A stretch of 31,984 nucleotides of DNA from assembly GCA_051294375.1 (NCBI GenBank), contig CM119264.1, positions 20,778,844 through 20,810,827 of the forward strand. The letters run 5' to 3'. A program made the translations under genes and the position numbers. The DNA is from Paraspadella gotoi (Eukaryota; Animalia; Chaetognatha). The notes under the pieces were generated by a model. It did no database searches and was not told the DNA's origin. It worked only from the letters and a program-made list of their open reading frames with translations. Shown in pieces: positions 8,330 through 25,945 of this stretch (position 1 is its first letter; the number at the start of each line of letters is the position of its first letter).

Positions 8330-8469
8330 AATTCCTACTTCACGCCCGCAAATTCGCGCGTTCAAACGTCACCCGTTCCGTGTGGTTCAACGTGGGATTG
8401 AAGAGGCTGGTTTTACAGGGCGCCACACCCGCAGCGGTGTCACCTCGTGGCGACAGCGAGACAGCATGT

Positions 8470-8550
8470 TCATGTAGTCCAAAGCTTTAGATCTGGCAGT
8501 AGGCCCATGCCTACAGGCGGGTTACCCGGTCCATCCCACTTTCTACATGA
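8470..8550 (-). ncRNA. Putative type-P5 twister ribozyme in BEL LTR (copy 1)
   Basis: UCAUGUAG aaa GUGG GA UGG accggg U^AA CCC GC cu GUAGGC augg GCCUAC ug CCAGA U CUA AAGC UUUGG a CUACAUGA. P5 8 bp, P3 6 bp, P4 5 bp, T1 CUA/UGG, T2 GC/GC. Predicted cut at 8524/8523. Confidence 0.72.
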
Positions 8551-8552
8551 CA

Positions 8553-8616
8553 ACCTCAGGGCTCGAACCAGGGACGCACATTGGGATGGTGCATTAGTCC
8601 ACTGAGCCACTGAGGC
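8553..8616 (-). promoter_or_regulatory. tRNA-derived Pol III internal promoter in BEL LTR (copy 1)
   Basis: A box TGGCTCAGTGG, B box GGTTCGAGCCC, acceptor-like GCCTCAG/CTGAGGT pairing; too short for a functional tRNA. Confidence 0.75.
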
Positions 8617-9259
8617 GCTGCGAAAGAAACAGCTTTAATCCATCTGTGGTGATAGGACCACCAGAGGATCTTCGTAGATAAAAATCTGAATGTCGAGACA
8701 GATTTTGAAGGAAAAGACGAGAGATATATTCAGACGTTTATTTTCACAATAATGTCCATAAAAAGTCCAGTAAAACTGTTATTGGGACGGACAATGTGTT
8801 TCTTAGAGAGCAAATCTAATAACTTGAGAAATGTCTCTATTTTCTTTCTCTCAATGACGACGGCCAAACAAGAGACCAGTAAAAATGCTCAACAGTCAGA
8901 TAAAAGACCGGTCAAATACAACTCAGAGCAAAAACGTTTGATAGAGAGGGAAAATTGAATTGCGAGGTATGACATTTAACACCCCCCGGGTCTAAACATA
9001 GTTTGGACTAAAAACTGACAATGTTATGTTTTGGATAAAAAGATTTTGATTGTAGAAATGTAAATTTAGGTTTGCAGTGGCTAACGAAATAACATTACGA
9101 AATTTCAAGCATTGAAAATTACTTCATGGTACTAGTTTAAAAGTCACCTGGTAAAACAAAATAAAAATGTTTGTTCTTAAAGTTAATCGTAAAGATATTA
9201 AACATAAATTATCTTGTTGGCGACGGCTTCTTGATATCACCGGATTATCCCGACGTCTA

Positions 9260-9570
9260 CTACGTCGCCTCTGCTTCGCCTGCATCATGATTCTTGTTAT
9301 CATTGACGGCGTTGCTTAGATTTTGAAAATACATCCGTGGCGGCAGCATTTCGTCCATGAAGGCATCGTGTAGAGACGTGTGATGTGGATCGTCACAGGC
9401 TTCACAAAGATGTTGAGATTGACAGTTCTTTGCGACGCGGCCCCCGCCTGAGACACCTAAAGCAGAGCTCGTGGTGGGCAGCAACGTCTTTTCGTAATCC
9501 AGAATCGGCTTGGCGAAAATTAGAGCACTGAGAGATAAAGTGTTTTTCATCACACAAAGTGCATTCCACT
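9260..9570 (-). pseudogene. gag: BEL/Pao Gag C-terminal zinc-knuckle region, frameshifted (copy 1)
   Basis: CTLCDEKHFISQC, CFRCLRRG[fs]RVAKNC, CEACDDPHHTSLH; an extra G in a G run splits the ORFs at 9402 and 9260. Confidence 0.85.
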
Positions 9571-11149
9571 NNNNNNNNNNNNNNNNNNNNNNNNNGTAAC
9601 AAAAGTATCGAAATAAGATGATGATTTAGATTATTTTAACCAGTTTTTCATATTCTATCCCCTCTAAGAGTCAAAAACTAAAAAAAGATATACTGATCCG
9701 AAAAGCTTAGTTCAAATTCCTTTAACCACCCTACCTTAGTTAGGCTTTCCCTAATACTAAGACAATAAAAGGTCAGCCGCTGCCGACGTCGGAAATAATT
9801 CTTTGTGGACTCAAGTCGCCAGTAATTATCATTATTTCGATGGTCTTCTACTTGTCCGGAGTTTACCTTTTTACAGAACTCACTAAAAATGCTCCGGCTT
9901 TTCTGGGCGATTTTTAAATAAACATTTGGTCTTGCATTTTCTCGGAACCTTGTTCCAGGCTTTCTTTCATTTCATTTTCTTCTCTTGGAAATCGCTGTAA
10001 ATGTAACACTTCGATTAAAATTTATTGCATTAAAACTTATAATATATATAAAAATAAAAATTAAATATCATTTCTCGACGCGTTATCATTATTGTATTGC
10101 AGCGATGAGACGTATCAACGATCAAATGAAAATTAAAATTCAACGAACTTAATAAAATCGACGATTAGAATACGTTTTTCTCTTTTTTTTTAAATAATTA
10201 ATTTCTTTAGTTTTATCCTTTTTTTTCAATTTTTAAATTATTCAAAATGTAAATAAAAGGAATTTAAGTAAGAATAACTTTAGAGAAATCTTGAAGGCCT
10301 GAAAAATTCTGATTTTGGACATAATGTCACAATTTAATCCACGTTGAAAAAAATTATTGACCTAACGTTTGACTCTTTGTTTTTTCTCAAAACTTTAATA
10401 TTTCGTCGACTTCAGCGATGGGGTGGGTTTCGGTTCATCGCACTCGTTATCGTCATGGACGGAGCAGTCGTGGAGGTGAATGAAAATAAAAAGAAATAGA
10501 GAGCGAAGAAGAAATACCAAGGTTCTCCCGCATCCACCTCAGCTCCTGAGCTGCGGGCCCAATCGCCCACGCCGCCTTCCCCGTCATCCTCGACATGGAC
10601 GGCGCCGCAGCCGACGTCGCGTCCCTCCTCATGCTTCTGCGCGCATCGTCCAGGGTAGCGGCTCCGCCTCATCGGCCGTCGACCACCGTCAGAGCGAGCG
10701 CCTCCGGCGCGATCAGCGGCTATCAACGCGAGACCGCGTCATAGAAACTGGCCCTCTCGACGACGAGACGAATTACGGCGAAGGCGAAGACGATTACGAC
10801 GAAAATTCCTAATCGTCGTAGGGGACGAATTTAATTCCGCGAACTTCCCCATCGAGGACCCGAATTCTCTTTAATGGGTTAAAACAACGCGACGCCTACA
10901 ACAGTTACAATATCCACGACGGTAATAACAACGAAAATAGCAATCTGCATCAATGACAATTTAGAAATTACATCAATAACAACAAAATTTCATTTCATAT
11001 TAAATTATTTTACAGTAAAAGCCATCAACAATTAAACTGATTTGAAAACATAATTTAATAATCAGGTAAATGAATAACGTTAATAAACTAACAGAATTCA
11101 TATAAATTAATCGAATCAACATAAAGTAAAAACAAAATAACAACAAAGA

Positions 11150-11810
11150 CGACAAAACTGCCATCTTCCTTTTGCCAGACACGACGGACTAAGCGACGTT
11201 CCCCAAAAGATTGCGTCCAAATGTTGGAATCGCGTCAGTTACACGGCGGCGACGCTGCGCCGGCGGCACAGGAGGCAGCGTCGCATCGACGGGCCGGCGG
11301 CCAGCTTGGAGACTTTCAGCGGCGTCGCCTAGTGGCGTCGCAAGCGGACGTTCTCGGCGTCGTCGAGAGGATGAATGATCGACTCCAAGAAGAGGTTGGA
11401 CAGTCCACTAGAGATATCTGTCTGTTTCTCTGCCTCGCCTTTCTGCCATTGCCTGTCTTTTCTTTTTATGAGTCAGTCTGTCATTTAAAAGTAAGTGGTT
11501 TACCAAGATGATTTGATGTAACCTTACCAAAAATTTTTTCCCTCCTTCACTAACAATAGGTAAGGCCAATTTGGTCAAAAAGTCCAAATGCGTTTCAATG
11601 CTTTCCCCCAGTCGCCCGACCCCGGCCAGAGTTCCTGGTGGCGCGGTCGAAAATTTCAAAGGTTCGGCCTCGTTCATTTCCTTGCCCGTGGACCGCTGAC
11701 GAATCTGCCAAAAGCGATTACGAGATGGACGAAGAATTGACGTGGGGAGGTTGAAGATGCCGTCAGGTGGCTGCATTCGAAGTGTAGGGCATTAATAATT
11801 TAAGGGTTTA
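11150..11810 (-). pseudogene. MED16: Mediator subunit 16-like C-terminal exons, frame-disrupted (pseudogene or sequencing errors)
   Basis: Ordered motifs KLLMP[fs]TLRMQPPDG..EPLKFSTAPPGTL..PLDDAENVRL..RRCLLC..W-T-Q-S-F-x3-R-L-V-R-R-V-W parallel the MED16 C-terminus as I recall it (QLLIPSLDWLPASDG..QPLRLQFGRAPTL..IDHLRRLHL..CTRC..WEQRWIKNCLCGGLW). In-frame stops and indels are present. Confidence 0.55.
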
Positions 11811-11884
11811 CAGGTCGTGTTAGGTAAAGAATAAAGTATAAAGAATAAAAGAGTAAAGATGATGATGAGTTCTGGATTGAAACT

Positions 11885-13210
11885 CATACGGGTATATCCC
11901 TTTGCTCACTGAGAAAATAACAAAGAGAGATGCATCATTGGTAGTCGCCATAAGTTTGTTGCCCCTACAAACTGGTTAGAGCCGAGTTTGACACCAAAAA
12001 AAATACGTTTATAGGTTCGCAACGAAGAGAGAAAGCAAAAGGAAAAGTTAAATTGAAAGGAAAGGAAAAGAAAATGAATGTTGCAATCTTACAGCTAAGG
12101 CACCAATCGTCGTATTCCTTATCTGCCAGCATCATTGGGCGGGAACTACTTCGGCGAAGGCAACGCCAACGCAGCGGCGCGCGAGTTTACACTTCTGGCG
12201 GGATCCACTCGCCGCCCATCACGTGTGGAAAAACTCCATTCCTGACAGAAACGTTGATCTTTGGATGGAATCTGCAAGAGTGTCTTCAACTTGATGTGAG
12301 CCTTTTTTTTCCTCGGATTAACTTTTTCCCCCCCCATTTTCTTCCCCATTTTCCAGCTTACTCATCCCTGGCAGGAGTGTTCAACACCGCTCAACTCTCT
12401 CCACACCCGTGTGGCCTCCTCGATCGCTGCCTTCGACTCCAACGGCGCAACCTCCAACCTGACGCAGTCGGCCAAGATCTTCGGTGTCGACGCAGTTGGC
12501 GCGGCAGGCGAATCCTTTGTCCCGGAGCTCCGTGTGAGAAAGGCAGACTTGTTTAGCTACGAAGGCACGAAGTAGTTCAATAATTTTCTTATAATACTAC
12601 AATAACGCTTTTACTTCATTCTTCTTTCCAATTATGAAATTTCTGAAATATAATGGAATTATTGCATTTCATTATTGTGATTACTGATCAGTGAGACTGA
12701 GGAGAGGAAAAAGAAGTGCCGAAACCCGGGATTGAACCAGGCGACCTTTAGATCTTCAGTTCTAACGCTCTCCCAACTGACTATTTCGGCGGGTTCTTTC
12801 CCGTAATAATAAAAAAAATTATCCTAATTCTTTTCTTCCCTCCCTTTCGCTGGTCCAGGTAACGGAAAGGCGAATACACGATTGGCCATGATGGTGTATG
12901 GAACGAGCAACGGAATGCTGGGAGAGAAAACCGAATGTGGCCATCGTGGCTGGGGATTGACTGTCATGGAAATTTAGGAAAGAATCCTCGACCACTTTTT
13001 CGGTCGGGAATTGGAAAGAAAGTGTGATTAAAAGGAAGGGGGAGAAAAAGAAGAGGAAGACAAGGGATAAGAATTATAGGGGAAGATAAGTAATATTGTT
13101 CCGTGATTGGGTTTTGATGTGGAGGGAATTCACCCTGCCTCAAGATTTTCACAATCATCATTAGTGATTCGTTGAATTGCCCTTGCCACTGGGGATGTCC
13201 CTCGCGTTTT
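11885..13210 (-). pseudogene. Candidate upstream exons of the same MED16-like gene
   Basis: GC-richer blocks with GTAAG/GTGAA donor-like ends; weak collinear matches TSPVARAIQRITNDD (~13200-13155) and PV..ATTND..SLLF (~11975-11910). Confidence 0.3.
12717..12790 (-). tRNA. tRNA-Phe: tRNA-Phe(GAA) with three single-base indels
   Basis: GCCGAAATAG-TCAGTTGGGAGAGCGTTAGAaCTGAAGATCTAAAGGTCgCCTGGTTCAATCCCGGGTTTCGGCA matches the canonical metazoan tRNA-Phe; TTTTT terminator 4 nt downstream. Confidence 0.92.
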
Positions 13211-13854
13211 TATTAGACCTCGTATTGCAACTTTATCCAATTCTTTTTAAAAGTTTTTTCTGCGTTGAAGGGAGATGCTAATTATGTTATTTTGATTTCT
13301 TGCGTTTATTAGGAAAAAAACCTTTATTGAAACTTCACTCCTTGACCATGCCTCTCCAACCAACCGAATTATAAAAAAGTATTAAAAAATTAGTCTTGTG
13401 GTATATTTACTTTTTCATTTGTTCGATTTGATTATTTAACAAAAATTACTGTTGCCTTATTCGATGTTTAAAAATATTGCTCCAACGCAAAATTAACTCA
13501 ATAATAAATGTGTAATAAAAAAAATTATTCTAATTACGAGTACGTCCTAAAAAAAAAAAATCAGAAGAATGCATCTGGGTAGGAATTTGAAATAAGAGTT
13601 GGAGGAGAAAGGATTAATCATGACTAAATTGAATTAAAATACTGCACTTGTATTTTGTAAATCCCACCAAAAAAAATGTATTTCAATTTACCTTCACCTT
13701 GTGCATATGATTTGTCCCTTCAAAATTGTTTATATGACTGAATCTCAATTTTTTAAAAAAAATATAATTGCGAAAAAATAATAAATAAAAGAAGTCTGAG
13801 TCTGCGCTCTCTCATGATCTACTTTCATTCAAACGCCATTGATGTCCTATTGCT

Positions 13855-13950
13855 TTGTCAGTCAAGTCAGTCATGTCAGTCTAAGCGTCATTGCCCAAAA
13901 GCTGAGGGGCAAAGTCGCCAGGGGACTCCCTGAGCGACTAAGAAGAAAAA
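13855..13950 (+). mobile_element. DINE-1/HINE-like 3' end
   Basis: GTCA-type microsatellite, then hairpin AGTCGCCAGGG-gact-CCCTGAGCGACT followed by an A-rich run. Confidence 0.35.
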
Positions 13951-15591
13951 GAGACAGGAGGAAGGCGTTTTTTTAAGAAGGAGACCGCCGATCGTAAGAC
14001 GCCCGGGATTATCAATTGATTAATTGGTTAATTATTTATAAATTAACAAACTAGCATACTTTTTTATATATTTAATTTTAAAAGCCATAATCGAGTAGTG
14101 AAACAGTTCACTATTCCAGTTAATAACGGACGGACGGACTCGGACTTCGATTTTTTCGCATAATTTTATCATAATTTTATGTTCAGACTATATTTTTAAG
14201 TGACTTCCCGACAAGTCCAACAAAAGTGAATTAGGTCGAGATCGTGCTGTATAAGCAAATCCGCACTTAAAAAAATTTAACCAAACAAAAACGTAAAGAG
14301 ACTTAAAACATTAAGAGGAAAGGTCATTCCAGCCATAACAATACGTAATCATTGATCTGTGTAGAGCTAAATATTATATTCGAGAAATACATTATAGTCA
14401 TCAGTAATCACAAAAAAAAAATAAGGTAATATTATATTGTAAACATTCTCCGTTTTCAATAATTTTTTTTAAATGGGTAAATAACAAAATTGTTCTATTA
14501 AATGGGTAAGCACATTTTCTAAAGATTTTGTTTTTTCCCAATCTGGTTACAAGTTATTAAATAAATTAAAAATTCTAGGGTAAAGAAGTTAAAACACGTG
14601 CATATGGCGATAATTTTTATAGAAGCGGGAGAATTAAGCAATTAATCTCGTTAGCTCTTTGGTTTTTTCCAAGTCATGAACAAAATTTTCAGGTTAAATT
14701 AGATGTAAAGAAATTTCGAGCCTACAATGAATTCTACACTGAATTTGCAAGAGTTGCATGCCTAAACACGACTGCAATAATATGAAATTAAAAAATTTGA
14801 TTAGCAATCTTAAAAACATTTGGTAAAAAATTGTAACTAGGAGAGACATTTGATAAACGCGTTCCAGTTAGAAAGAATTCAGGGTTAAAGTTTAAAAAAC
14901 ATTTCATTTTTCAAGGATACAAGTTGAAATTTTAAAAATGTCTCTCTATTACAATTTCCTAATTCAGTAATAAAAAATTCATAAAAAATATCAGGTGGAT
15001 TGGCCTTTTCGTTGACCTGCAACTCTTCAGATAGGTTTCTTTATTTTATATTATAATTAAACGATAATAAATGGGGTTAGAATGCATTTCAAATGCTTAA
15101 AGTGAATACATTTTCGGAATCGCCAGAGCTCAGGCTTCTGAATTGTACTCCATTTTAGCTATTTTAAAGTTGAATTGAATGACCCTTTTTCTTAAAAGAG
15201 ATACTGAAAGACAAAATATATACATTTTTTTATGTATAAATATCACATCCCTCGGTTTTAACGGAAAATCAATCTTCCCTTTCAATTTTTGGAGAAAAAA
15301 AATTGGTCTCACTCTAAGGACGATTTATTATAAATTTAAAGAAATAAGTTATAAAGTAAACAATTATAACCACTTTAGTTCTAAGAATAGTCAATGGCAA
15401 GGTGTATTACTTTTAAGAAATTCCTTTTTTCCTTCTATTACTAAATCGATTTTCAATGCAACTTTTTGAATTAGTTCATTGGGTTGTTGCACTGAAGCTT
15501 TTAAATATTTAATAATATATTGAAGAAGCTGGTTTTACAGGGCGCCACACACGCAGCGGTGTCACCTCGTGGCGACAGCGAGACAGCATGT

Positions 15592-15672
15592 TCATGTAGT
15601 CCAAAGCTTTAGATCTGGCAGTAGGCCCATGCCTACAGGCGGGTTACCCGGTCCATCCCACTTTCTACATGA
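15592..15672 (-). ncRNA. Putative type-P5 twister ribozyme in BEL LTR (copy 2)
   Basis: Same sequence as 8470-8550; predicted cut at 15646/15645. Confidence 0.72.
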
Positions 15673-15674
15673 CA

Positions 15675-15738
15675 ACCTCAGGGCTCGAACCAGGGACGCA
15701 CATTGGGATGGTGCATTAGTCCACTGAGCCACTGAGGC
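15675..15738 (-). promoter_or_regulatory. tRNA-derived Pol III promoter in BEL LTR (copy 2)
   Basis: Same A/B boxes as 8553-8616. Confidence 0.75.
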
Positions 15739-16381
15739 GCTGCGAAAGAAACAGCTTTAATCCATCTGTGGTGATAGGACCACCAGAGGATCTTCGTAGA
15801 TAAAAATCTGAATGTCGAGACAGATTTTGAAGGAAAAGACGAGAGATATATTCAGACGTTTATTTTCACAATAATGTCCATAAAAAGTCCAGTAAAACTG
15901 TTATTGGGACGGACAATGTGTTTCTTAGAGAGCAAATCTAATAACTTGAGAAATGTCTCTATTTTCTTTCTCTCAATGACGACGGCCAAACAAGAGACCA
16001 GTAAAAATGCTCAACAGTCAGATAAAAGACCGGTCAAATACAACTCAGAGCAAAAACGTTTGATAGAGAGGGAAAATTGAATTGCGAGGTATGACATTTA
16101 ACACCCCCCGGGTCTAAACATAGTTTGGACTAAAAACTGACAATGTTATGTTTTGGATAAAAAGATTTTGATTGTAGAAATGTAAATTTAGGTTTGCAGT
16201 GGCTAACGAAATAACATTACGAAATTTCAAGCATTGAAAATTACTTCATGGTACTAGTTTAAAAGTCACCTGGTAAAACAAAATAAAAATGTTTGTTCTT
16301 AAAGTTAATCGTAAAGATATTAAACATAAATTATCTTGTTGGCGACGGCTTCTTGATATCACCGGATTATCCCGACGTCTA

Positions 16382-16810
16382 CTACGTCGCCTCTGCTTCG
16401 CCTGCATCATGATTCTTGTTATCATTGACGGCGTTGCTTAGATTTTGAAAATACATCCGTGGCGGCAGCATTTCGTCCATGAAGGCATCGTGTAGAGACG
16501 TGTGATGTGGATCGTCACAGGCTTCACAAAGATGTTGAGATTGACAGTTCTTTGCGACGCGGCCCCCGCCTGAGACACCTAAAGCAGAGCTCGTGGTGGG
16601 CAGCAACGTCTTTTCGTAATCCAGAATCGGCTTGGCGAAAATTAGAGCACTGAGAGATAAAGTGTTTTTCATCACACAAAGTGCATTCCACTTTTGGCCG
16701 AAACGAATTATTTCTCTTTTTCGGTTTTGATTTTGACTTGATATTAGAAACGGGAACCAGACCTTGAGTTGGAGTCAGAGACAGGACTGGCAATGGAGGG
16801 AGACGGAGAG
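16382..16810 (-). pseudogene. gag: BEL/Pao Gag C-terminal zinc-knuckle region, frameshifted (copy 2)
   Basis: Three knuckles split over ORFs 16524..16793 and 16382..16675, with the same frameshift as copy 1. Confidence 0.85.
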
Positions 16811-17021
16811 NNNNNNNNNNTTATTATAGATTTAAATCTTTTCATCTTCAATATTATATACTGCAATATGTAAATTAGATTAAAGCATTTCTATATACTA
16901 ATTTGGATATTATAATGAGTACTATAATCTCATTTGCATATTGCAGTAAATCATAATGAAGTGGAAATTCAAACAAAATCCTAAATCCAAATGTAATAAG
17001 AAAATATCAAAGCTATTTCAA

Positions 17022-17520
17022 GATGAGAAGCCATATCTAAATTTTTAACTTACTATGATCGCACACTTTTGTAAAACTTTATCATAATTCATAATAATTT
17101 TTATTTAAAGAAAAACGGTAAGTCACAGCCAAACCTATAAAAGCGTAGTAGTTTTTATATAAAAACAGCGTGACGCCGACGACGACCACTCACGACGCCG
17201 CCGCCGACGACGACGACGATGACGACATCACAAAGAAGCTGACCCGAATCAATATCGAGCCTGAACCGGCTTCGCCGGTAGGCTCGATAAAAACAGTCGT
17301 GCAAATGATTATATTTTTTTATCGAGACAGACCGGGCGAAGCCGGTCCTGGCTCTATAATAATTCGCTTTTGCTTCTTTGTGCCGTAGTCGTCGTCGTCG
17401 TCGTCTTGACTTGACTTGAAAGGCATTCGTCGTCGTCGTCTGCGTCACGCTTTTTTGCAATCATGGCTTGTAAAAGTATGATATCATAGGAAGTTGAAAA
17501 TTTATATATGGCTTCTAATC
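17022..17520. mobile_element. Tail-to-tail inverted pair of DINE-1/HINE-like element ends
   Basis: Arms are diverged reverse complements (GAAGCCATAT..., AAAAAGCGTGACGC, GAC repeats, CACAAAGAAGC); each ends in a CCGGCTTCGCC-centred hairpin plus A run (17254-17293; 17314-17357). Confidence 0.65.
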
Positions 17521-17742
17521 ATCAAGATCTTTAAAATTCCCATGTTTCATATCAATATTCCTATTTGTTTATGTTTATTTACAAAAACAAAACCTTTTAA
17601 TTATATGTCTCTTACCCTCTCTCTTTCTTTTAATTATATGTCGCTCTCTCTCTCTCTCTCTCTCTTTTTCTCAGTCACTGCTTCTTCTGATTTGTCTAAA
17701 AACGAGTTCTGGCTCTGCAGCGTCATGCAGCGTCGTCCAGCT

Positions 17743-17787
<45 letters not shown>

Positions 17788-17804
17788 TTTTTAACAAAAA
17801 AATG

Positions 17805-17837
<33 letters not shown>

Positions 17838-18119
17838 GAGCTCACCAATATTGAAGACGACGCCGTCAGCAGTTCACCATCCGTTCTCCCTTTTTTTTCT
17901 TTTTATTCCGCTTTTCTTGTATGAATCACCAGGGCGCGGACCAGAGTCCTTCACATTGGGAGGAGTTCGCGCTACCTCGGGCGCCATAGGAACTTTGACT
18001 TATTACTTGGACGAGTAAAAGGGTTGTTGAGCTTCTCTCTCTCTCTCTTAATAATATGTCGCTCTCTCTCTCTCTCTTTTTTTCCGTCGCTGCTGCTTCT
18101 GATTCCAGCGGCTGTCAGG

Positions 18120-18840
18120 CTTCTCTCTATCTCTCTTTTAATATTATGTCGCTCTCTCTTTCTCTCTTTTTTTCTTCTGAATAGGGGTAGCCCCTCTCAA
18201 TCGGTGAGTCAAAAATTTAGTATAGGAACATGCTCAAACGAAAATTTATGCATTTTTAAGTATACTTTCAATGTACAAAAAATTTCTTATATGGCTCTAT
18301 ACCCAAATATTTATTTTTTAATATTTATCTATAGAAAGGAAAAGAGCTTGGCCCTACTCAGATTCGTCAAAAAACGAGTTCAGCTCTGCAGCGGCGGTCC
18401 AGCGGCTGTCCAGATTCTCTTCTATCTCTCTTTTCTCTCTCTCTCTCTCTTCTTTCTCTCTCTCTCTCTGATTATTTTTTCTTCTGAATAGGGTAGCCCT
18501 CTCAAAGGGGTGAGTCAAAAATTTAGTATGAGAACATGCTCAAATAAAAATTTATACATTTTTAATTATACTTTCAATGTACAAAAAATTTCTAATTTGT
18601 TTCTATACCCAAATATTTATTTTTAATATTTATTATAGAAAGGAAAGGAGTTGGACCCTATTCAGATTCGTCTAAAAACGAGTTCAGCTCTGAAGCGGCT
18701 GTCCAGCGGCTGTCCAGCTTTCTCTGTCTCTCTCTGTCTCTCTCTCTGTCTCTCTCTCTTGTCTCTCTCTCTGTCTCTCTCTCTGTCTCTCTCTCTGTCC
18801 GATCTCTTGCGTGATCGTGCGTTTTTCGAAAAATTCTGAT
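18120..18840 (+). repeat. Tandem ~310-bp units of a dispersed repeat with CT tracts
   Basis: GGGTAGCCC..GTGAGTCAAAAATTTAGTAT..CAGATTCGTC..AAACGAGTTCAGCTCTG repeated at about 18183 and 18491. Confidence 0.75.
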
Positions 18841-19101
18841 TATTTTTCTCCTTCTAAAAACTTTTATTATCGCCATTTATTCCGCGCTTTTTTCTCAATA
18901 CAAAATCACAAATTTACATCCGAGTTTTTCGTGGATTTACTTTACGGCTCTGAGATTTAGTCAGAATATGTTTTATGTTTGGAAACAAAGTTCGTACACA
19001 CACACACTTCTCTCTCTCTTCTCTCTCTCTCTCTCTCTCCTCTCTTCTCTCTCTCGCTCTCTCTCTCTCTCCCATACACGCGTTTGTTTGTTTTATTTAC
19101 G

Positions 19102-19329
19102 ATGAATGACTCATCGCGTCAATGAATGACTATCATTACATCAATCATTTGGTTATCATCGCATCAATCATTTGGTTATTTCATTGCATCAATATTTGGT
19201 TATCATCGCATCAATAAATACTATTACATCAATCAATCAATTACTATTACATCAATCAATCAATTACTATTACATCCATCAATTAATCAATTACTATGGT
19301 TATCATCGCATCAATGAATGACTATCATC
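19102..19329. repeat. ATCATCGCATCAAT minisatellite, second array
   Basis: Same unit as 364-612, likewise preceded by a CT tract. Confidence 0.85.
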
Positions 19330-21395
19330 TCAAAAATAAAAAAAACAATTTCTATCTTTTTTTTTCGGTTTATGGTTTAACTACCAAACAATGTATCTAG
19401 TTATCAAGTTCCATTAGTGAGGCAGTGAGGAAGTTGAAAATGTTGTGTCCATTTTCTTTGTTTCATATCGATTTTTCATTAATTTTCTTTGATAGTAAGG
19501 TCTGTCGAGATCTTTATACTTTTAAGATTTTTTTCGAAGTATTTTTCTTGGTTTTGCTTTATAAATTGATTTTCCATTTCTGGCAATGTTCTTTGAAATC
19601 ATAATTTTTTTACATCAAAAGAAAGGTCAATCGCCATATTTATCTAAAATGCTTTATTTCGCTGGCAAGAGATATTATTATTATTGAATCACATAATATG
19701 CTGTAATAAATAAATCATAAGTATCGTAATCACCATCTTAAACATCGTCGTCGTCATCAACATCATCCGCTGTTAACCATCATATTTTTTCTTATCAAGA
19801 ACCAAATCTGACTTGATTTCTTCTCTTACTTTTAACTCCTTCGCCTCCGCCTTTTTCTCCCCCTCTGCCACATCATCTTCTTCTTTCCTCACTTCCTTCT
19901 CACCTTCCTACCTCTCTTCCCCTTCCCCTTAATCCACCCGCCGTTGTTGTTATTAATATTTGCTTTTCTGCTTCTCGAGAGAAATTGTGAACTCATTCGG
20001 TTTTAGCTTCCGGCGAGGAAGAACCTGGGAAGGAAAGGGTAGGAGAAAAGGAGAGGAGGAGAAAGAGGGAGCCGAAGAAATAAATGGCGATTCAGACTCT
20101 TTTTTTTTTTTTAATATATATTCCCTATTTTTTTACACGAGAACTTTGGGTTAAGCGAAATATATTTTCTTTTCGGGATTTTCTTCATATTTTGCTCCGT
20201 TACTCCGTCGAGTCTAAGAACTGTCTACGGAGTCATTTATCTCTTTAGTTAAATATGCTTTCATAAATTATGTGAAAAAGGTTTAATCTGTGGGAACAGC
20301 GCTAGCTCAAATCGTACTAAAAATATTAACTTTTTATATTTCATACCATGTTAGTTTTACTAATGGTCACTTTTTTTTTTAAATATTCTCGATGCGTTAA
20401 TGCTTTATGCATCAGACATACAATCACACAGCCAGACTGATAGTCAGACAGAAAGACAGATAGACGAACAAAGACAGGAAACCGAAAAGGAAGACCGAGG
20501 CACATCGAATTTTTCCAGAGAAAATCTCTTCTTCAAAAAAGCGTCGCCTCGGAGCCGAAAAAAGGGGAAGATAATCTTAGCGATAAAAATGAATCAAAAT
20601 GAGTAAAGTGGGTAAAAAATGGAGCAAAATGGAGACAAAGTGAGAGGCGCCTAAAAAAGTTTTGAAAGGATTTTGGAAAGGACCTCGGAAGGCGTTTGGA
20701 AAAGATTCGAGATGTGAGGAAGTTTGAAAGGCGACGAAGGCGAGGAAATCGGAAAGGAACTGATTTGAAGGGGGAAAAGTTGGTCGGAAAAAGTACATAA
20801 AGAAATGTGGATATTTAAGGGAATTTAAAAGTCTAATTACGTTTAATTAAGGAAACTATGTCTTTCTATTGTCATTTGATAAAAACATCGTGTTTATTCG
20901 TTTTTTTACATAAGTATATATATAAGAGTTCTGTTGGACTGCTCTTTCGGAGGTTGTTATGGTATCAGCAAACAATGGCGACAGAACAAATAACAGAACC
21001 CTTTCAGTAAGTACTAAACAAGTTCAAAACTGGCTCACGACTGCAACCGCAGTCGCAATTGTTGCAGGAACAAAAGCTGGCTGAACCTTGTCGTCATCGC
21101 AACAACACCGTCGATGAATTGAAAAAAAAAATGATTTCCTCTCCTTTAGTTTCCTCGTGATGATGAAATCGGAGATGACTCTGGGGGAACGAATTTTCGG
21201 GAGGAAATTAGAAAAATAATACCTCGCAGGGAGGAAAGGAGGAAGGGAGGAGAAAAGGAGAAAGGAAAGGAGAGAGAAAAGAGAGGAAGTTGAAAGGGAA
21301 ATAAGGAAAAGGAACGGAGATAAGAGAAAGAATGTTTATGTAGAAATAACAAAGACGAAGAGAACGAAAACTAAGACATGAAAAGAATAAACAAG

Positions 21396-21466
21396 ATCGA
21401 CAGACCGACAGGCCGACCGAAAAGTGACTTGAGTTGCTCAGCGAGTACTTGCGGCGCAACTAAAAA
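21396..21466 (+). mobile_element. DINE-1/HINE-like 3' end
   Basis: GACA/GACC repeats, hairpin AGTTGC..GCGAGTACTTGC..GCAACT, then AAAAA; paralogous to 27158-27246. Confidence 0.6.
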
Positions 21467-21921
21467 TGGGGTGTTTAAAAATAAAGAAATACTGAAGGAA
21501 AAAAACAAAAAAAGGAAAGAGAATGCGTTCCATGAAATAAATCCAATATATTGAGGATGGAAATATTGAAAGAAAAAACTTGGAAATGTACTAAGGAGAG
21601 AAAAGAAGAACATAAATTTAAATGTCTGTAGCGCCGCAATGACTTTTTGAGCCCGTCTTTTATTCTTAAGGCCAGAGATCACTCAAACAAGAATTGCATA
21701 AAGCTTTATACAAATTGTTTTAATGCAAAAGAAGTATATTTCCTTTGTCTTTCAAATAAAATAACTTTAAATTTTACTAAGGTTCAACTTCAAGAGGCAC
21801 CCAAAAATCGGGCAATTTTTTTTAACGGTAAACTTTAAAAATTTCATTCAATACGATAGTCATTTTTAAATTCGAATCTTTTTATTTAAAATTAACATCA
21901 GCTACCTCAGTGTAGTAATAG

Positions 21922-23125
21922 TGTGGATAAGGCGCTAAGTGGGCAGAATATGACTATCCGTAACTTCTATAACCCCCTCAAGCAGCCATGGAACGGGTCA
22001 TGGGTTTTGAACCAGGCTTGAGGGTTTTCCACGCCCCCAAGGCGGCTTACAGCCGTTCTCACACTTCCCGCAGGGTAGGTACCGGGTTGGGATTGCACCC
22101 AGTACCTAGTGGTCATGAGCTGATGGCTTTACTCAATGAGTCACCGGGTCACGACTGAAGGTGTCATGCTTATAGGCGGTGTGAACCTAGGCAATGCCCG
22201 ACTACGGTTCCAGTGGGATTCCTCCCACACGGGATTCCTCCCACACGGGATTCCACCCACACGAGATTCCTCCCTCACGGGATTCTACCCCAATGGATTC
22301 CTCCTTATGGAATTTCTCCCACACGAGATTCCTCCCAAAGGAATTCCTCCCACACGGGATCCTCCCAAAAGAATTAGTCCCACACGGGATTCCTCCCAAA
22401 TAAATTCCTCCCACATTGGATTCCTCCCACACAGGATCCTCCCAAAAGGATTCCTCCCACACGGAATTCCTCCCAAATAAATTTCTACTACATAGGATTC
22501 CTCCCACATGGGATTCCTCCCCATGGAATTCCTCCCATGCGGGATTCCTCCAATGAGGAATCCCATGGGGTGGAATCCCGTGTGGGAGGAATCCCGTGTG
22601 CGAAGAATCCAGTTGGGAGGAATCTCGTGTGGGAGGAATTCCGCGTGGGAGGAATCCCGCGGGGAGGAATCCCGTGTGGGAGCAATCCCATGGGAAGGAA
22701 TCCCGCGTGGGATGAATCCCATGTGGGAGGAATCCAGTTGGGAGGAATCCCGTGTGGGAGGAATACCACGACCACCCCCGATTCCATGCGGCGCAGATTG
22801 TAACCCATCCTGCACTGCTTGCTTCTAGTGGAGGGAGGGGAGCAATCCTCAGCAAGTCCATGGGCCTGGAATCAGAAGGTTGGAATACGCTCGCCATGAT
22901 GGGCTCACCAGTGTGGATAAGGTGCTAAGTGGGGCTGAACAGTGCTATCCGCAACTTCTTTAACCCTCTCTAGCAGCCATGGAACGGGTCCTGGGTTTGG
23001 AACCAGGCATGAGGGTTTTCCACACCCCCAAGGCGGCTTACAGCCATCCTCATGTTTCCCGCAGGGTAGGTACCGGCTTGGGATTGAACCCAGTACCTAG
23101 TGGTTATGAGCTGATGGCTTTATAG
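21922..23125 (-). mobile_element. Older disrupted copy of the tRNA/twister TRIM
   Basis: LTR 21922-22205, foldback insertion, internal region ~22785-22911 with the same PBS, and a second LTR from 22912 that breaks off near 23122. Confidence 0.9.
22206..22784. mobile_element. Foldback-type insertion built of ~15-16-bp GGATTCCTCCCACACG repeats
   Basis: Units run forward to 22550 and inverted from 22555 around a CAAT loop; interrupts the TRIM at its LTR/PPT junction. Confidence 0.8.
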
Positions 23126-23289
23126 GACTAAGCTCTGATGAAAACAGCCAGAGGTTTTTTTAATATATTCTTATACCGTAGAATGCTGGCAATATTGCTT
23201 TTGTTAAGTTTCAAAAAAATCCGACCATAAATATAGAAAATATTAACCAAAATCTTTGGAAAATCCGCCCCTTCTTTGGTAGAGCCAAA

Positions 23290-23600
23290 CTTTGTCAATG
23301 GGGTGGGTCAGAAGTTTGATTTGGGAACTTTTCCAAATGAAACCAAATGAAACTGAAAAAACTTTCAATGGACCAAATTTTTTTAAATGGCTAGAAGCAT
23401 TAGTAATTAATTTTTTAATATTTATTTATAGATAGGAAATATCACAAATTTTATTTTGAATTTTGTATTTTTAAAAGAAGATTCAAATAGCTTATGAAAG
23501 GTTATCTACACAAAGTATAATTCTTTTTTCACTATTTTCATGATAAGTGGATTAAAATTGGGAAAAACCTTAAAAAATCATCATCATCCGATAATTTTAG
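23290..23600 (+). repeat. Diverged copy of the 18183-family dispersed repeat
   Basis: TCAATGGGGTGGGTCAGAAG...GATTCAAATAGCTTATG...CACAAAGTATAATTCTTTTT; matches 25620-25945 in reverse. Confidence 0.65.
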
Positions 23601-24092
23601 CTGTTTTTACCAATGTTTAGTAATAAAACATCAAAATTGTAAAAAGTTGTAATTATATTTTTTGCTTAACTTTTTAAGCTTTATTAGAATCAATTAAAAA
23701 AACTTAAAATATCAAAACAAATTTTTGACATTATATAGCAATTTAATAATATTTATTAGCGAATAACTCAAGGCTCAAAACATTTTTGCAAATAAAAATT
23801 TTAACACAATAATTAATACTAATAATGGATTAGTTTAATGCTGTTCCCATTAAAATTTGAATTCGGTCGGCTACCGCTATCTTTGGTAGATTTTTGCCAT
23901 AAAAGATTTTTCCCGAATTTGACTCCTGGTTGAAAACTCTTAGAATTCCGATCGTTAGCTCCTCTTACTTTTACTTTAATTAAAATTTCACCAAATGGAC
24001 TAATTCACTTTACCATGATCGTGTGGATAAGGCGCTACGTGGGCTGAAGATGACTGTCCGTAACTTCTATAACCCCCTCTCGCAGCCATGGA

Positions 24093-24172
24093 ACGGGTCC
24101 CTGGGCTTGGAACCAGGCTTGAGGGTTTGCCATGCCCCCAAGGCGGCTTACGGCCGTCCTCACGCTTCCCGT
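24093..24172 (-). ncRNA. Putative type-P5 twister ribozyme, TRIM 3' LTR
   Basis: ACGGG aa GCGU GA GGA cggccg U^AA GCC GC CUUGGGGG cauggcaaa CCCUCAAG CCUGG U UCC AAGC CCAGG ga CCCGU. P5 5 bp, P3 8 bp, P4 5 bp, T1 UCC/GGA, T2 GC/GC. Predicted cut at 24150/24149. Confidence 0.75.
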
Positions 24173-24179
24173 AGGGTAG

Positions 24180-24251
24180 GTACCGGGTTGGGATTGAACC
24201 CAGTACCTAGTGGTCATGAGCTGATGGCTTTACTCAATGAGCCACCGGGTC
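24180..24251 (-). promoter_or_regulatory. tRNA-derived Pol III promoter, TRIM 3' LTR
   Basis: A-box-like TGGCTCATTGAG and B box GGTTCAATCCC at tRNA spacing; CTCATGA anticodon-loop-like segment. Confidence 0.7.
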
Positions 24252-24499
24252 ACAACTGAAAGTGTCATGATTCTAGGCGGGGTGAACCTAGGCAATGCCC
24301 GACTACATGCCCCCCAGATTGTAACCCACCCTGCACTGCTTCCAGTGGAGGGAGGGGAGCAATCTTCAGCTATATCAAGGGCCTGGAATCAGAAGGTTGG
24401 AATACGCTCGACAGGATGGGCTCACCAGTGTGGATAAGGCGCTACGTGGGCTGAAGATGACTGTCCGTAACTTCTATAACCCCCTCTAGCAGCCACGGA

Positions 24500-24579
24500 A
24501 CGGGTCCCTGGGCTTGGAACCAGGCTTGAGGGTTTGCCATGCCCCCAAGACGGCTTACGGCCGTCCTCACGCTTCCCGC
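24500..24579 (-). ncRNA. Putative type-P5 twister ribozyme, TRIM 5' LTR
   Basis: Same fold; the two differences from the other LTR give G-U pairs (P5, T2). Predicted cut at 24557/24556. Confidence 0.7.
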
Positions 24580-24586
24580 AGGGTAG

Positions 24587-24658
24587 GTACCGGGTTGGGA
24601 TTGAACCCGGTACCTAGTGGTCATGAGCTGATGGCTTTACTCAATGAGCCACCGGGTC
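24587..24658 (-). promoter_or_regulatory. tRNA-derived Pol III promoter, TRIM 5' LTR
   Basis: Same A/B boxes as 24180-24251. Confidence 0.7.
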
Positions 24659-24778
24659 ACAACTGAAAGTGTCATGATTCTAGGCGGGGTGAACCTAGGC
24701 AATGCCCGACTACAATCGTATCATATTAAAATAACCAAATAAAATGTAAAGAAAAATTTTGAAAGCTCCTCAGACATA

Positions 24779-24803: not shown

Positions 24804-25619
24804 CTAGTACCCAAAACCATTCTTGTTATGTAATTGGATCAATTAACGATGAAGACATAAACATTTATGTAGAGAGAATGTAGAACATATTTGTAATGTT
24901 ATTTTTACCAAAAAAGTATGACAAAAATTGTACAATTTTTAAAAGTGAAAGAAATTCGTCCATTTGCATCTGCAGTTGGGTCCACTGAGATAGAGACGCT
25001 CAATGGAGCCATAGACGGTCACTGATTCCACAGATGGACCATCGTTATGCTCTGCCCTTGTTATTTAGTTTCTGTCCCCCATATTCAAAATTGGTTTTGA
25101 AGCTTGAACCGTTTATCACAGAAGAAAAAAAATATAGACAAAAACCGTTTGAAAAAAAAATTAAACTAAAATTATTTTTGATAAGTATGGAAAGGTTGGA
25201 GAAATTCTAGGAAAGGGATTTTGGAAAATGTTACTCGTTTTCAAGATATTTAGATTTTAACGCTAAATATTTTATTATTATTTTTTTTCTTATGAAGAAA
25301 AGTGAATTTGGAAAATCCCTTTAATAGAATAAGGGACATTGACCTTAAGTAGCCATAGCCGATGAAATTTAAATGCTAATGAATACAACGTTAAAATAAT
25401 CTATCATGAGCATAGATTATAGTATTAAAATATTTGTTGTCAAAAATTATTTTTTCGGAGGGTACGAGCCTACTTAAAATTATTAAATTACTATATAAAG
25501 CAAAACAATTTTTTAATGGGTTCTGTTAGAGCATAAAAAGTTAAACAAGAAATATAATTACAGCTTTTAAAAATTCTTACGTTTTCTTAGTAAAAATTTA
25601 AAAAAACTAATAAAATCAT

Positions 25620-25945
25620 CAAAAGATGATGATGATGACAATTTTTTATGGTTTTTCTTTTTTTGACCTACTTATCATAAAAATATTTAAAAAAGAATTA
25701 TACTTTGTGCAGACAACTTTTTATGAGCTATCTGAATCTGGTCTTAAAATTTAAAATTTCTAAAAAAAATTTTTGACCTTTCTTATCTATAAATAAATAT
25801 TAAAAAAATAATTACTAGGGTATAGAGCCATATAAGAAATTTTTTGTCCATTTAAGGTATTCTTAAAAATGTCTAAATTTTCGTTTGAGCTTGTACTCAT
25901 TCTAAATTTTTGACTCACCCCATTGAGTGCGGCTACCCCTACCTT
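25620..25945 (-). repeat. Inverted copy of the 18183-family dispersed repeat
   Basis: Reverse complement reads GGGTAGCCGCACTCAATGGGGTGAGTCAAAAATTTAG... Confidence 0.75.

Follow-up and report, generated by a model that had tools for sequence, protein, structure and literature searches.

What a self-cleaving ribozyme would do in the long terminal repeats (LTRs) of a retrotransposon that codes for nothing is the question raised by a terminal-repeat retrotransposon in miniature (TRIM) on the minus strand of a 31,984-base window of eukaryotic DNA. The window, meaning the whole stretch analyzed, contains two N gaps and many repeats. Self-comparison revealed a direct repeat of 287 nt at 24021/24428, which marks the TRIM and has older relatives at 21920 and 22911. 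It also revealed a larger LTR-like element through a 1,174-nt repeat with copies at 8397/15519. An earlier reading of these letters, here called the original prediction, proposed that the LTRs of both elements share a tRNA-like promoter head followed by a permuted twister ribozyme. On balance, the results favor the interpretation that the TRIM works as an animal LTR retrozyme, in which transcription would start with RNA polymerase III (Pol III), each LTR would be cut once, and a 407-nt unit would be circularized and reverse-transcribed by a helper.

The 693-bp element is an animal Helenus by the definition of Kojima (PMC10886601). As in Helenus (TRIMp3), the element is shorter than approximately 1 kb and has two LTRs, a primer-binding site (PBS), a polypurine tract (PPT) and no coding capacity, no open reading frame of at least 100 amino acids overlapping it. 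It is flanked by the 4-bp target-site duplication (TSD) of animal Helenus families, and its LTRs contain tRNA-derived A and B boxes with a TRGC-type A-box start and a GGTTC B box. In most of the published Helenus LTRs inspected (PMC10886601 Data S1) little follows the B box, and a T-run is the usual ending, whereas approximately 160 nt follow the B box in the TRIM, holding the twister fold and no T-run. Since the two LTRs differ at only 5 positions, the insertion is fairly young. The family is large: 7,073, 7,403, 2,712 and 554 contigs from four sequencing runs of one organism aligned to the TRIM, figures that are not a copy number, with LTR depth several-fold above that of the interior. At least half of the TRIM words were present in 9 sequencing runs of this organism from 3 studies, and the listing included no RNA run among them.

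Features of the TRIM, the larger element and their surroundings (positions counted from the first base of the window)
Feature	Position	Strand	Remarks
Complete Helenus-type TRIM, 693 bp	24022..24714	-	two 286-bp LTRs (TG...CA), 121-bp non-coding interior
TRIM 5' LTR	24429..24714	-	
TRIM 3' LTR	24022..24307	-	
4-bp TSD, left copy	24018..24021	.	
4-bp TSD, right copy	24715..24718	.	
PBS-like sequence	24410..24427	-	TGG start, one base past 5' LTR; from sequence
PPT (G6)	24308..24315	-	ahead of 3' LTR
tRNA-like head, TRIM 5' LTR	24597..24651	-	predicted to promote Pol III transcription
tRNA-like head, TRIM 3' LTR	24190..24244	-	partial A box from 24244; B box 24200-24190
Type-P5-like twister fold, TRIM 5' LTR	24500..24579	-	predicted cut 24557/24556; T2 has a G-U wobble
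Type-P5-like twister fold, TRIM 3' LTR	24093..24172	-	predicted cut 24150/24149
Palindromic 6-nt linker in place of P1	24151..24156; also 24558-24563	-	candidate intermolecular or inter-LTR P1
Older TRIM copy	21921..23125	-	5'-truncated; LTRs 88% alike; palindromic array inside (~22204-22773)
Larger LTR-like element, 3' end, copy 1	8399..9570	-	ended upstream by assembly gap 9571-9595
Larger LTR-like element, 3' end, copy 2	15521..16810	-	ended upstream by assembly gap 16811-16820
Putative 583-bp LTR of larger element	8399..8981; copy 2 15521-16103	-	TG...CA, G6 tract upstream; from sequence
tRNA-like head, larger element	8553..8616; copy 2 15675-15738	-	A box 8609-8599; B box 8569-8559
Type-P5-like twister fold, larger element, copy 1	8470..8550	-	predicted cut 8524/8523
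Type-P5-like twister fold, larger element, copy 2	15592..15672	-	predicted cut 15646/15645
C-X2-C-X3-H-X4-H zinc-knuckle-like remnant	16490..16528	-	in a short frame
tRNA-Phe(GAA) gene	12717-12790	-	intact, then T5 terminator; between the two larger-element copies

All helices of the originally proposed fold were found in place on the minus strand, and a descriptor of the P5-permuted twister returned 4 sites and no others from the entire window, each on the minus strand and with the same U-A cut positions. When the window was dinucleotide-shuffled 1,851 times and both strands were scanned (118,275,198 bases), the descriptor matched 4 times; it matched 2 of 149,684 shuffled TRIM LTRs and 0 of 149,684 shuffled versions of the larger cassette. 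It was composed after the sites were known, and the chance rates are therefore optimistic. The conserved core, comprising AA after the cut, GA, the L4 sequence U-NNN-AAGC and GC in L2, was present in 4/4 intact LTR copies, one of which has GU for GC, and was broken in both LTRs of the older TRIM copy. Both pseudoknots can pair (T1, 3/3 pairs; T2, 2/2 pairs).

The order of parts is that of the Rfam Twister-P5 model RF02684, namely P2'-GA-T1'-P1-UAA-P2-GC and a P4 loop with U-NNN-AAGC, with pairing of both pseudoknots. The cassette differs from the model in that the 14-nt P1 loop is absent, the 5' strand of P2 is one base short, P3 is present and P4 has 5 bp. The model aligned to both TRIM LTRs over positions 1-58 with 17.3 and 15.8 bits (E 0.54 and 1.3). 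The covariance-model match to Twister-P5 that was named as a check is thus sub-threshold in the TRIM LTRs and lacking in the larger cassette, and the cassette is not a threshold member of the Rfam family. The low score is explained by the missing P1 loop, the missing base in P2 and the extra P3. An Rfam scan of the whole window returned no twister at E<=5, the TRIM match appearing only in a 701-base scan. The description of P2 and the linker in the original prediction has to be corrected in two respects. The two strands of P2 measure 3 nt (5') and 4 nt (3'), giving 3 bp and a variable 1-nt bulge in both families rather than 4 bp, and the 6-nt linker, self-complementary as 3+3 nt, cannot close a P1 hairpin; the RF02684 alignment takes it as P1 strands around a 0-nt loop. 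The fold is invisible at the Rfam threshold, so similar elements may be widely missed.

Comparison of the two families supports the fold. Of 26 base pairs, 25 are kept between them (12 by double changes, 3 by single changes and 10 unchanged) and 1 is broken. All 3 pairs of T1 are altered and still pair, 2 by double and 1 by single change, and UAA, GA, GC and U...AAGC are identical across both families. The head and twister of the larger element aligned with their TRIM counterparts (0 and 1 of 500 shuffles were as good). In both families the LTR ends exactly 71 nt after the twister (24022-24092 and 8399-8469), and the sequences of these tails are dissimilar (222/500 shuffles scored as well). 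Two strings that flank P3 in the larger cassette recur in the Liu 2021 supplement of twister variants (PMC8501958), one 1,090 and the other 558 times, matches that point to real kinship with animal twisters. A sequence profile built from 6 cassettes found no additional copy in the window. Among the matches listed from viral contigs (53 + 11) and metagenome contigs (at least 120), 0/184 pattern-preselected loci passed the descriptor, and no third cassette family was found among these loci.

Variation within the TRIM family has the same tendency. The listed variants place 9 changes at 8 positions of the fold: 3 positions lie in the P3 loop, one is the P2 bulge (with two letters), another is a deletion where P4 joins P5, and the remaining 3 are paired and still pair. 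No change fell in the core or linker among these variants. That 5/8 variant positions lie in the 14 unpaired of 80 positions has P=0.003, and that all variants are harmless has P 0.0003-0.017 depending on the mutation model. The expectation that family copies preserve the pairings is therefore upheld by the listed common TRIM variants, which spare fold, core and linker.

From these features and from published twister data, the TRIM twister fold is predicted probably to cleave. P1 is dispensable in twisters in vitro (PMC5408937). Among 1,948 scored natural twisters, imperfections in P1, P2 and P4, including bulges and deletions, were tolerated and damage to core or pseudoknots was not; G-U was tolerated in the 2-bp pseudoknot of natural type-P1 twisters, and approximately 94% of the natural twisters tested were active (PMC11662667). 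These tolerance data come from type-P1 forms. The four intact copies bear only defects of the tolerated kinds.

Several findings weigh against an active ribozyme, the scores below the RF02684 gathering value (17.3 and 15.8 vs 37.6 bits) and the lack of a match in the larger cassette among them. A review reports a suggestion that the active site may be disrupted when P2 changes in length (PMC5408937), and the larger cassette has A-U at a near-invariant G-C pair. In nearest-neighbor calculations, which leave pseudoknots uncounted, a hairpin of the linker with P2 is favored; P2, P5 and the linker duplex have a probability of ~0 in the full transcript; the favored two-dimensional fold lies 20-31 kcal/mol below either twister-competent fold; and z-scores of the TRIM twister fold are ~0. 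As a point in favor of activity, plant retrozyme circles also keep their hammerhead in a predicted blocked state (PMC4918200). In addition, the covariation comes from just two independent families, and 25 rows lie outside the TRIM variant listing.

Pairs of A and B boxes were found at exactly 4 places in the window, all in the LTRs with the twister fold, against 0.02 expected per shuffled window. The A box is strict in the larger element only, that of the TRIM being imperfect in its 3' half. The folds calculated for the heads are long hairpins (z -4.0 and -5.4) and not cloverleaves, and the Rfam tRNA model gave no match at them (E<=10). The B-box end and P5 are separated by 8 nt in the larger element and by 17 nt in the TRIM. 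A tRNA-Tyr call by ARAGORN at 24500-24592 was rejected as false, since it overlaps the twister hairpins.

No T4 run occurs inside the TRIM on its sense strand, the first lying 37 nt beyond the element end, and a Pol III transcript could therefore span the whole TRIM. On these grounds we infer that Pol III is used by the TRIM; transcription by Pol III is likewise unproven for published Helenus (PMC10886601). Against this inference, a stretch of 693 nt can easily lack T4 by chance. In the proposed cycle, transcription by Pol III would begin at the tRNA-like head in the 5' LTR and the twister would cut once per LTR, releasing a 407-nt RNA (24556 to 24150) without terminal repeat. Host tRNA ligase would close this RNA, a reaction shown in vitro for retrozymes (PMC7229834), and formation of the 407-nt circle appears somewhat more probable than its absence. 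Primed at the PBS, the reverse transcriptase of a helper would then copy more than one round of the circle and rebuild two LTRs, according to the circle-copying model for retrozymes (PMC7761336, PMC4918200). Because the TSD is 4 bp, the helper is inferred to be a Gypsy-type LTR element. At z -1.6 and with 65% of its bases paired, the predicted circle has only modest structure, which speaks against this cycle.

The nearest known systems are the plant LTR retrozymes (PMC4918200, PMC7761336, PMC9695139), which are likewise non-autonomous and have a self-cleaver in each LTR, a PBS, a PPT, a 4-bp TSD and a non-coding center. They share with the TRIM a G+C content above 55% and a double cut predicted to yield unit-length RNA. 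The TRIM differs from them by a twister instead of a type III hammerhead, the Rfam hammerhead models giving no match in the LTRs; by an internal tRNA-like promoter; by being an element of non-plant type; by a unit of 407 nt compared with 600-1000 nt; and by a circle that is only predicted.

Two further explanations of the TRIM ribozyme were considered. In one, an active twister merely sets an RNA end for ordinary LTR retrotransposition by slow cuts in single LTRs, and no circle is made. A 3' cut could replace the Pol III terminator that the TRIM, with no T4 unlike most Helenus, is missing, and the competing off-state hairpin predicts slow cutting. A cut in only one LTR, either the 3' LTR or the 5' LTR with trimming of the head, would keep the repeated region for normal strand transfer. 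Trimming of this kind has precedent in the twisters that trim the 5' end of Perere-3 (PMC8501958), and the weak structure of the predicted circle fits this explanation as well. However, both LTRs carry the fold, and efficient cutting yields a unit without terminal repeat, which needs a circle. Furthermore, the permutation with an internal cut re-forms across the circle junction, like the type III hammerheads in plant retrozymes (PMC7761336). We consider the end-setting role unlikely, though deserving of weight.

A dead or marginal twister relic, retained as a structural signal for packaging, dimerization or RNA stability, is still less probable. It has to contend with the retention of catalytic unpaired residues and both pseudoknots across two families despite near-total helix turnover, with the conserved catalytic residues among the listed TRIM variants and with the high proportion of active molecules among tested natural twisters (PMC11662667). 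In its favor are the short P2, the loopless P1, the sub-threshold Rfam score, the unfavorable two-dimensional energetics and the consideration that the palindrome alone could serve genome dimerization. The T2 pair broken in both LTRs of the older TRIM copy also agrees with a relic and counts against the retrozyme interpretation, one copy having apparently moved with a weakened fold. This degenerate copy had escaped the original prediction. Its two LTRs share several derived changes, including the broken T2 pair, and its template therefore probably already bore the weakened ribozyme. At the LTR/PPT junction of the same copy lies a foldback-like array of 15-16-nt units (22204-22773) in which the left units are direct and the right units inverted.

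The linker in the place of P1 allows an extension of the retrozyme interpretation. Its inner four bases are self-complementary in both families with both pairs swapped (G-C to C-G; post-hoc P ~0.004), and the older TRIM copies retain the self-pairing via wobbles. Relative to two monomer folds, a nested pair of ribozymes with swapped strands and a single common P1 was calculated to be lower by 16.3 and 10.3 kcal/mol. Within the actual transcript of the TRIM the strand-swapped form is 11 kcal/mol below the monomers, yet 20 above the unconstrained minimum. On this modeling, we tentatively suggest, while regarding it as rather doubtful, that the loopless palindromic P1 may pair between two LTR copies. 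Cutting would then be most efficient after both LTRs had been transcribed, and the monomer circle would be spared. A precedent exists in the type I hammerheads of the amphibian retrozyme and Penelope, in which a helix beside the cut that is too short is rescued by a dimer (PMC7229834, PMC7761336). Twisters can do without P1 and hence have no need of a dimer, which weighs against the proposal. No natural dimer-dependent twister was found in the literature searched, to which subscription journals do not belong; a dimer-gated twister, if true, would be new to ribozyme biochemistry.

The larger element presents a different picture. Its two copies have 2 differences and unlike downstream flanks, and no 5' LTR, PBS or TSD is in view, both running into N gaps. 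They had been taken for the LTRs of one BEL element. A single element over 8399-16690 was rejected: no PBS or PPT lies between the copies, a tRNA-Phe gene lies inside and both repeats end in gaps. The absence of PBS and PPT together with the tRNA-Phe gene indicates two separate 3' ends cut by assembly gaps. The C-X2-C-X3-H-X4-H knuckle resembles that characteristic of BEL/Pao gag, a resemblance unconfirmed by Pfam, homologue search or Atlas: the frame had no Pfam match and no homologue was found, and the Atlas zinc-knuckle leads, at 0.79-0.86, stayed below 0.9. The BEL designation is therefore backed by the polypurine tract, the TG...CA ends and the zinc-knuckle-like remnant and has no database support, and BEL identity is an unproven lead.

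Upstream of its head the larger element has 17 runs of at least 4 T, and none between head and end, from which it follows that Pol III recruited by the head cannot transcribe the element in full. Pol II read-through would be needed for the element to use the cassette as the TRIM does. There is nearly an even chance that in this element the cassette is a passenger with no role in the cycle of its host, either the 3' portion of an LTR resembling that of Helenus or a piece resembling a short interspersed element (SINE), captured at the element end. The T-runs agree with this, as do an AATAAA at 8742, well upstream of the head, the lack of a visible 5' LTR and the alignment of head and twister with those of the TRIM while the 71-nt tails are dissimilar. 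On the other hand, two near-identical copies in different flanks have the same end base and an intact fold, which argues that the cassette travels together with its element and has escaped decay. A promoter-plus-cleavage cassette of non-autonomous LTR elements, as originally envisaged, is thus sustained as a conserved head and twister-like fold, and as a coherent working unit for the TRIM only.

Each part of the retrozyme interpretation of the TRIM has precedent: tRNA-like LTRs in Helenus, LTR ribozymes in plant retrozymes, a promoter with a hammerhead in Schistosoma and retroelement-linked twisters in Perere-3. The Schistosoma SINE-like repeats also have a Pol III promoter followed by a self-cleaver, but a hammerhead and in tandem non-LTR repeats (PMC6765202). 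The twister T-variants of Schistosoma Perere-3 (PMC8501958) are retroelement-linked, have a weak or missing P1 and share P3-flanking strings with the larger cassette; they are type P1 and stand at the 5' end of an autonomous non-LTR element, whereas those described here are type P5 within LTRs. The claim that the combination had no prior description agrees with the literature searched, outside which Repbase notes also lie. Neither a twister in an LTR nor an animal LTR retrozyme was found there, and the PMC11662667 supplement of approximately 1,000 new twisters might hold these motifs. Animal retrozymes are stated to lack LTR, PBS and PPT (PMC4918200, PMC7761336, PMC9695139); insect elements with type III hammerheads and twisters on RTE elements are both mentioned as in preparation (PMC7761336). 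PMC10886601 makes no mention of twisters, and "ribozyme" appears nowhere in it outside the list of references. None of the LTRs inspected in its Data S1 showed a twister such as that described here, the fungal part having been covered by string searches only.

Inspection of Data S1 by eye also revealed what appears to be a type III hammerhead after an early head, in the slot that the twister occupies here, in two gall-wasp LTRs, Helenus-2_SyJa-LTR and Helenus-2_SyUm-LTR (PMC10886601). The features seen are a GUC site, the CUGAUGA and GAAA core, three helices and long complementary loops 1 and 2, and the tails past the hammerhead are similar in length to the TRIM tail. The hammerhead core string has 5 occurrences in Data S1, two of them in this head-then-hammerhead context, on which the paper makes no remark. 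If the reading of the wasp elements is true, the ribozyme slot would be interchangeable, with cutting and not a given fold being selected, and circular-RNA retrotransposition would extend to animal LTR elements. The still broader proposal of an unrecognized class of animal LTR retrozymes, Pol III TRIMs with an exchangeable self-cleaver and RNA circles and with the twister here the first natural obligate dimer through inter-LTR P1, such that transcripts of full length would be cut and circles spared, is rather improbable. LTR retrozymes have so far been described from plants only, with hammerheads, and twister ribozymes are widespread, yet almost no biological roles have been assigned to them. 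The presence of promoter, ribozyme, PBS and PPT in one 693-bp element makes a role of the twister directly testable in a small construct.

Other repeats in the window include unclassified dispersed sequences, approximately 73-87% alike and in inverted and direct orientation, at 23358-23879, 25350-25861 and 18104-18778. Minisatellite arrays of 18-nt and 22-nt units were found at 660-1180 and 344-620/19111-19354, the 22-nt family occurring in two places.

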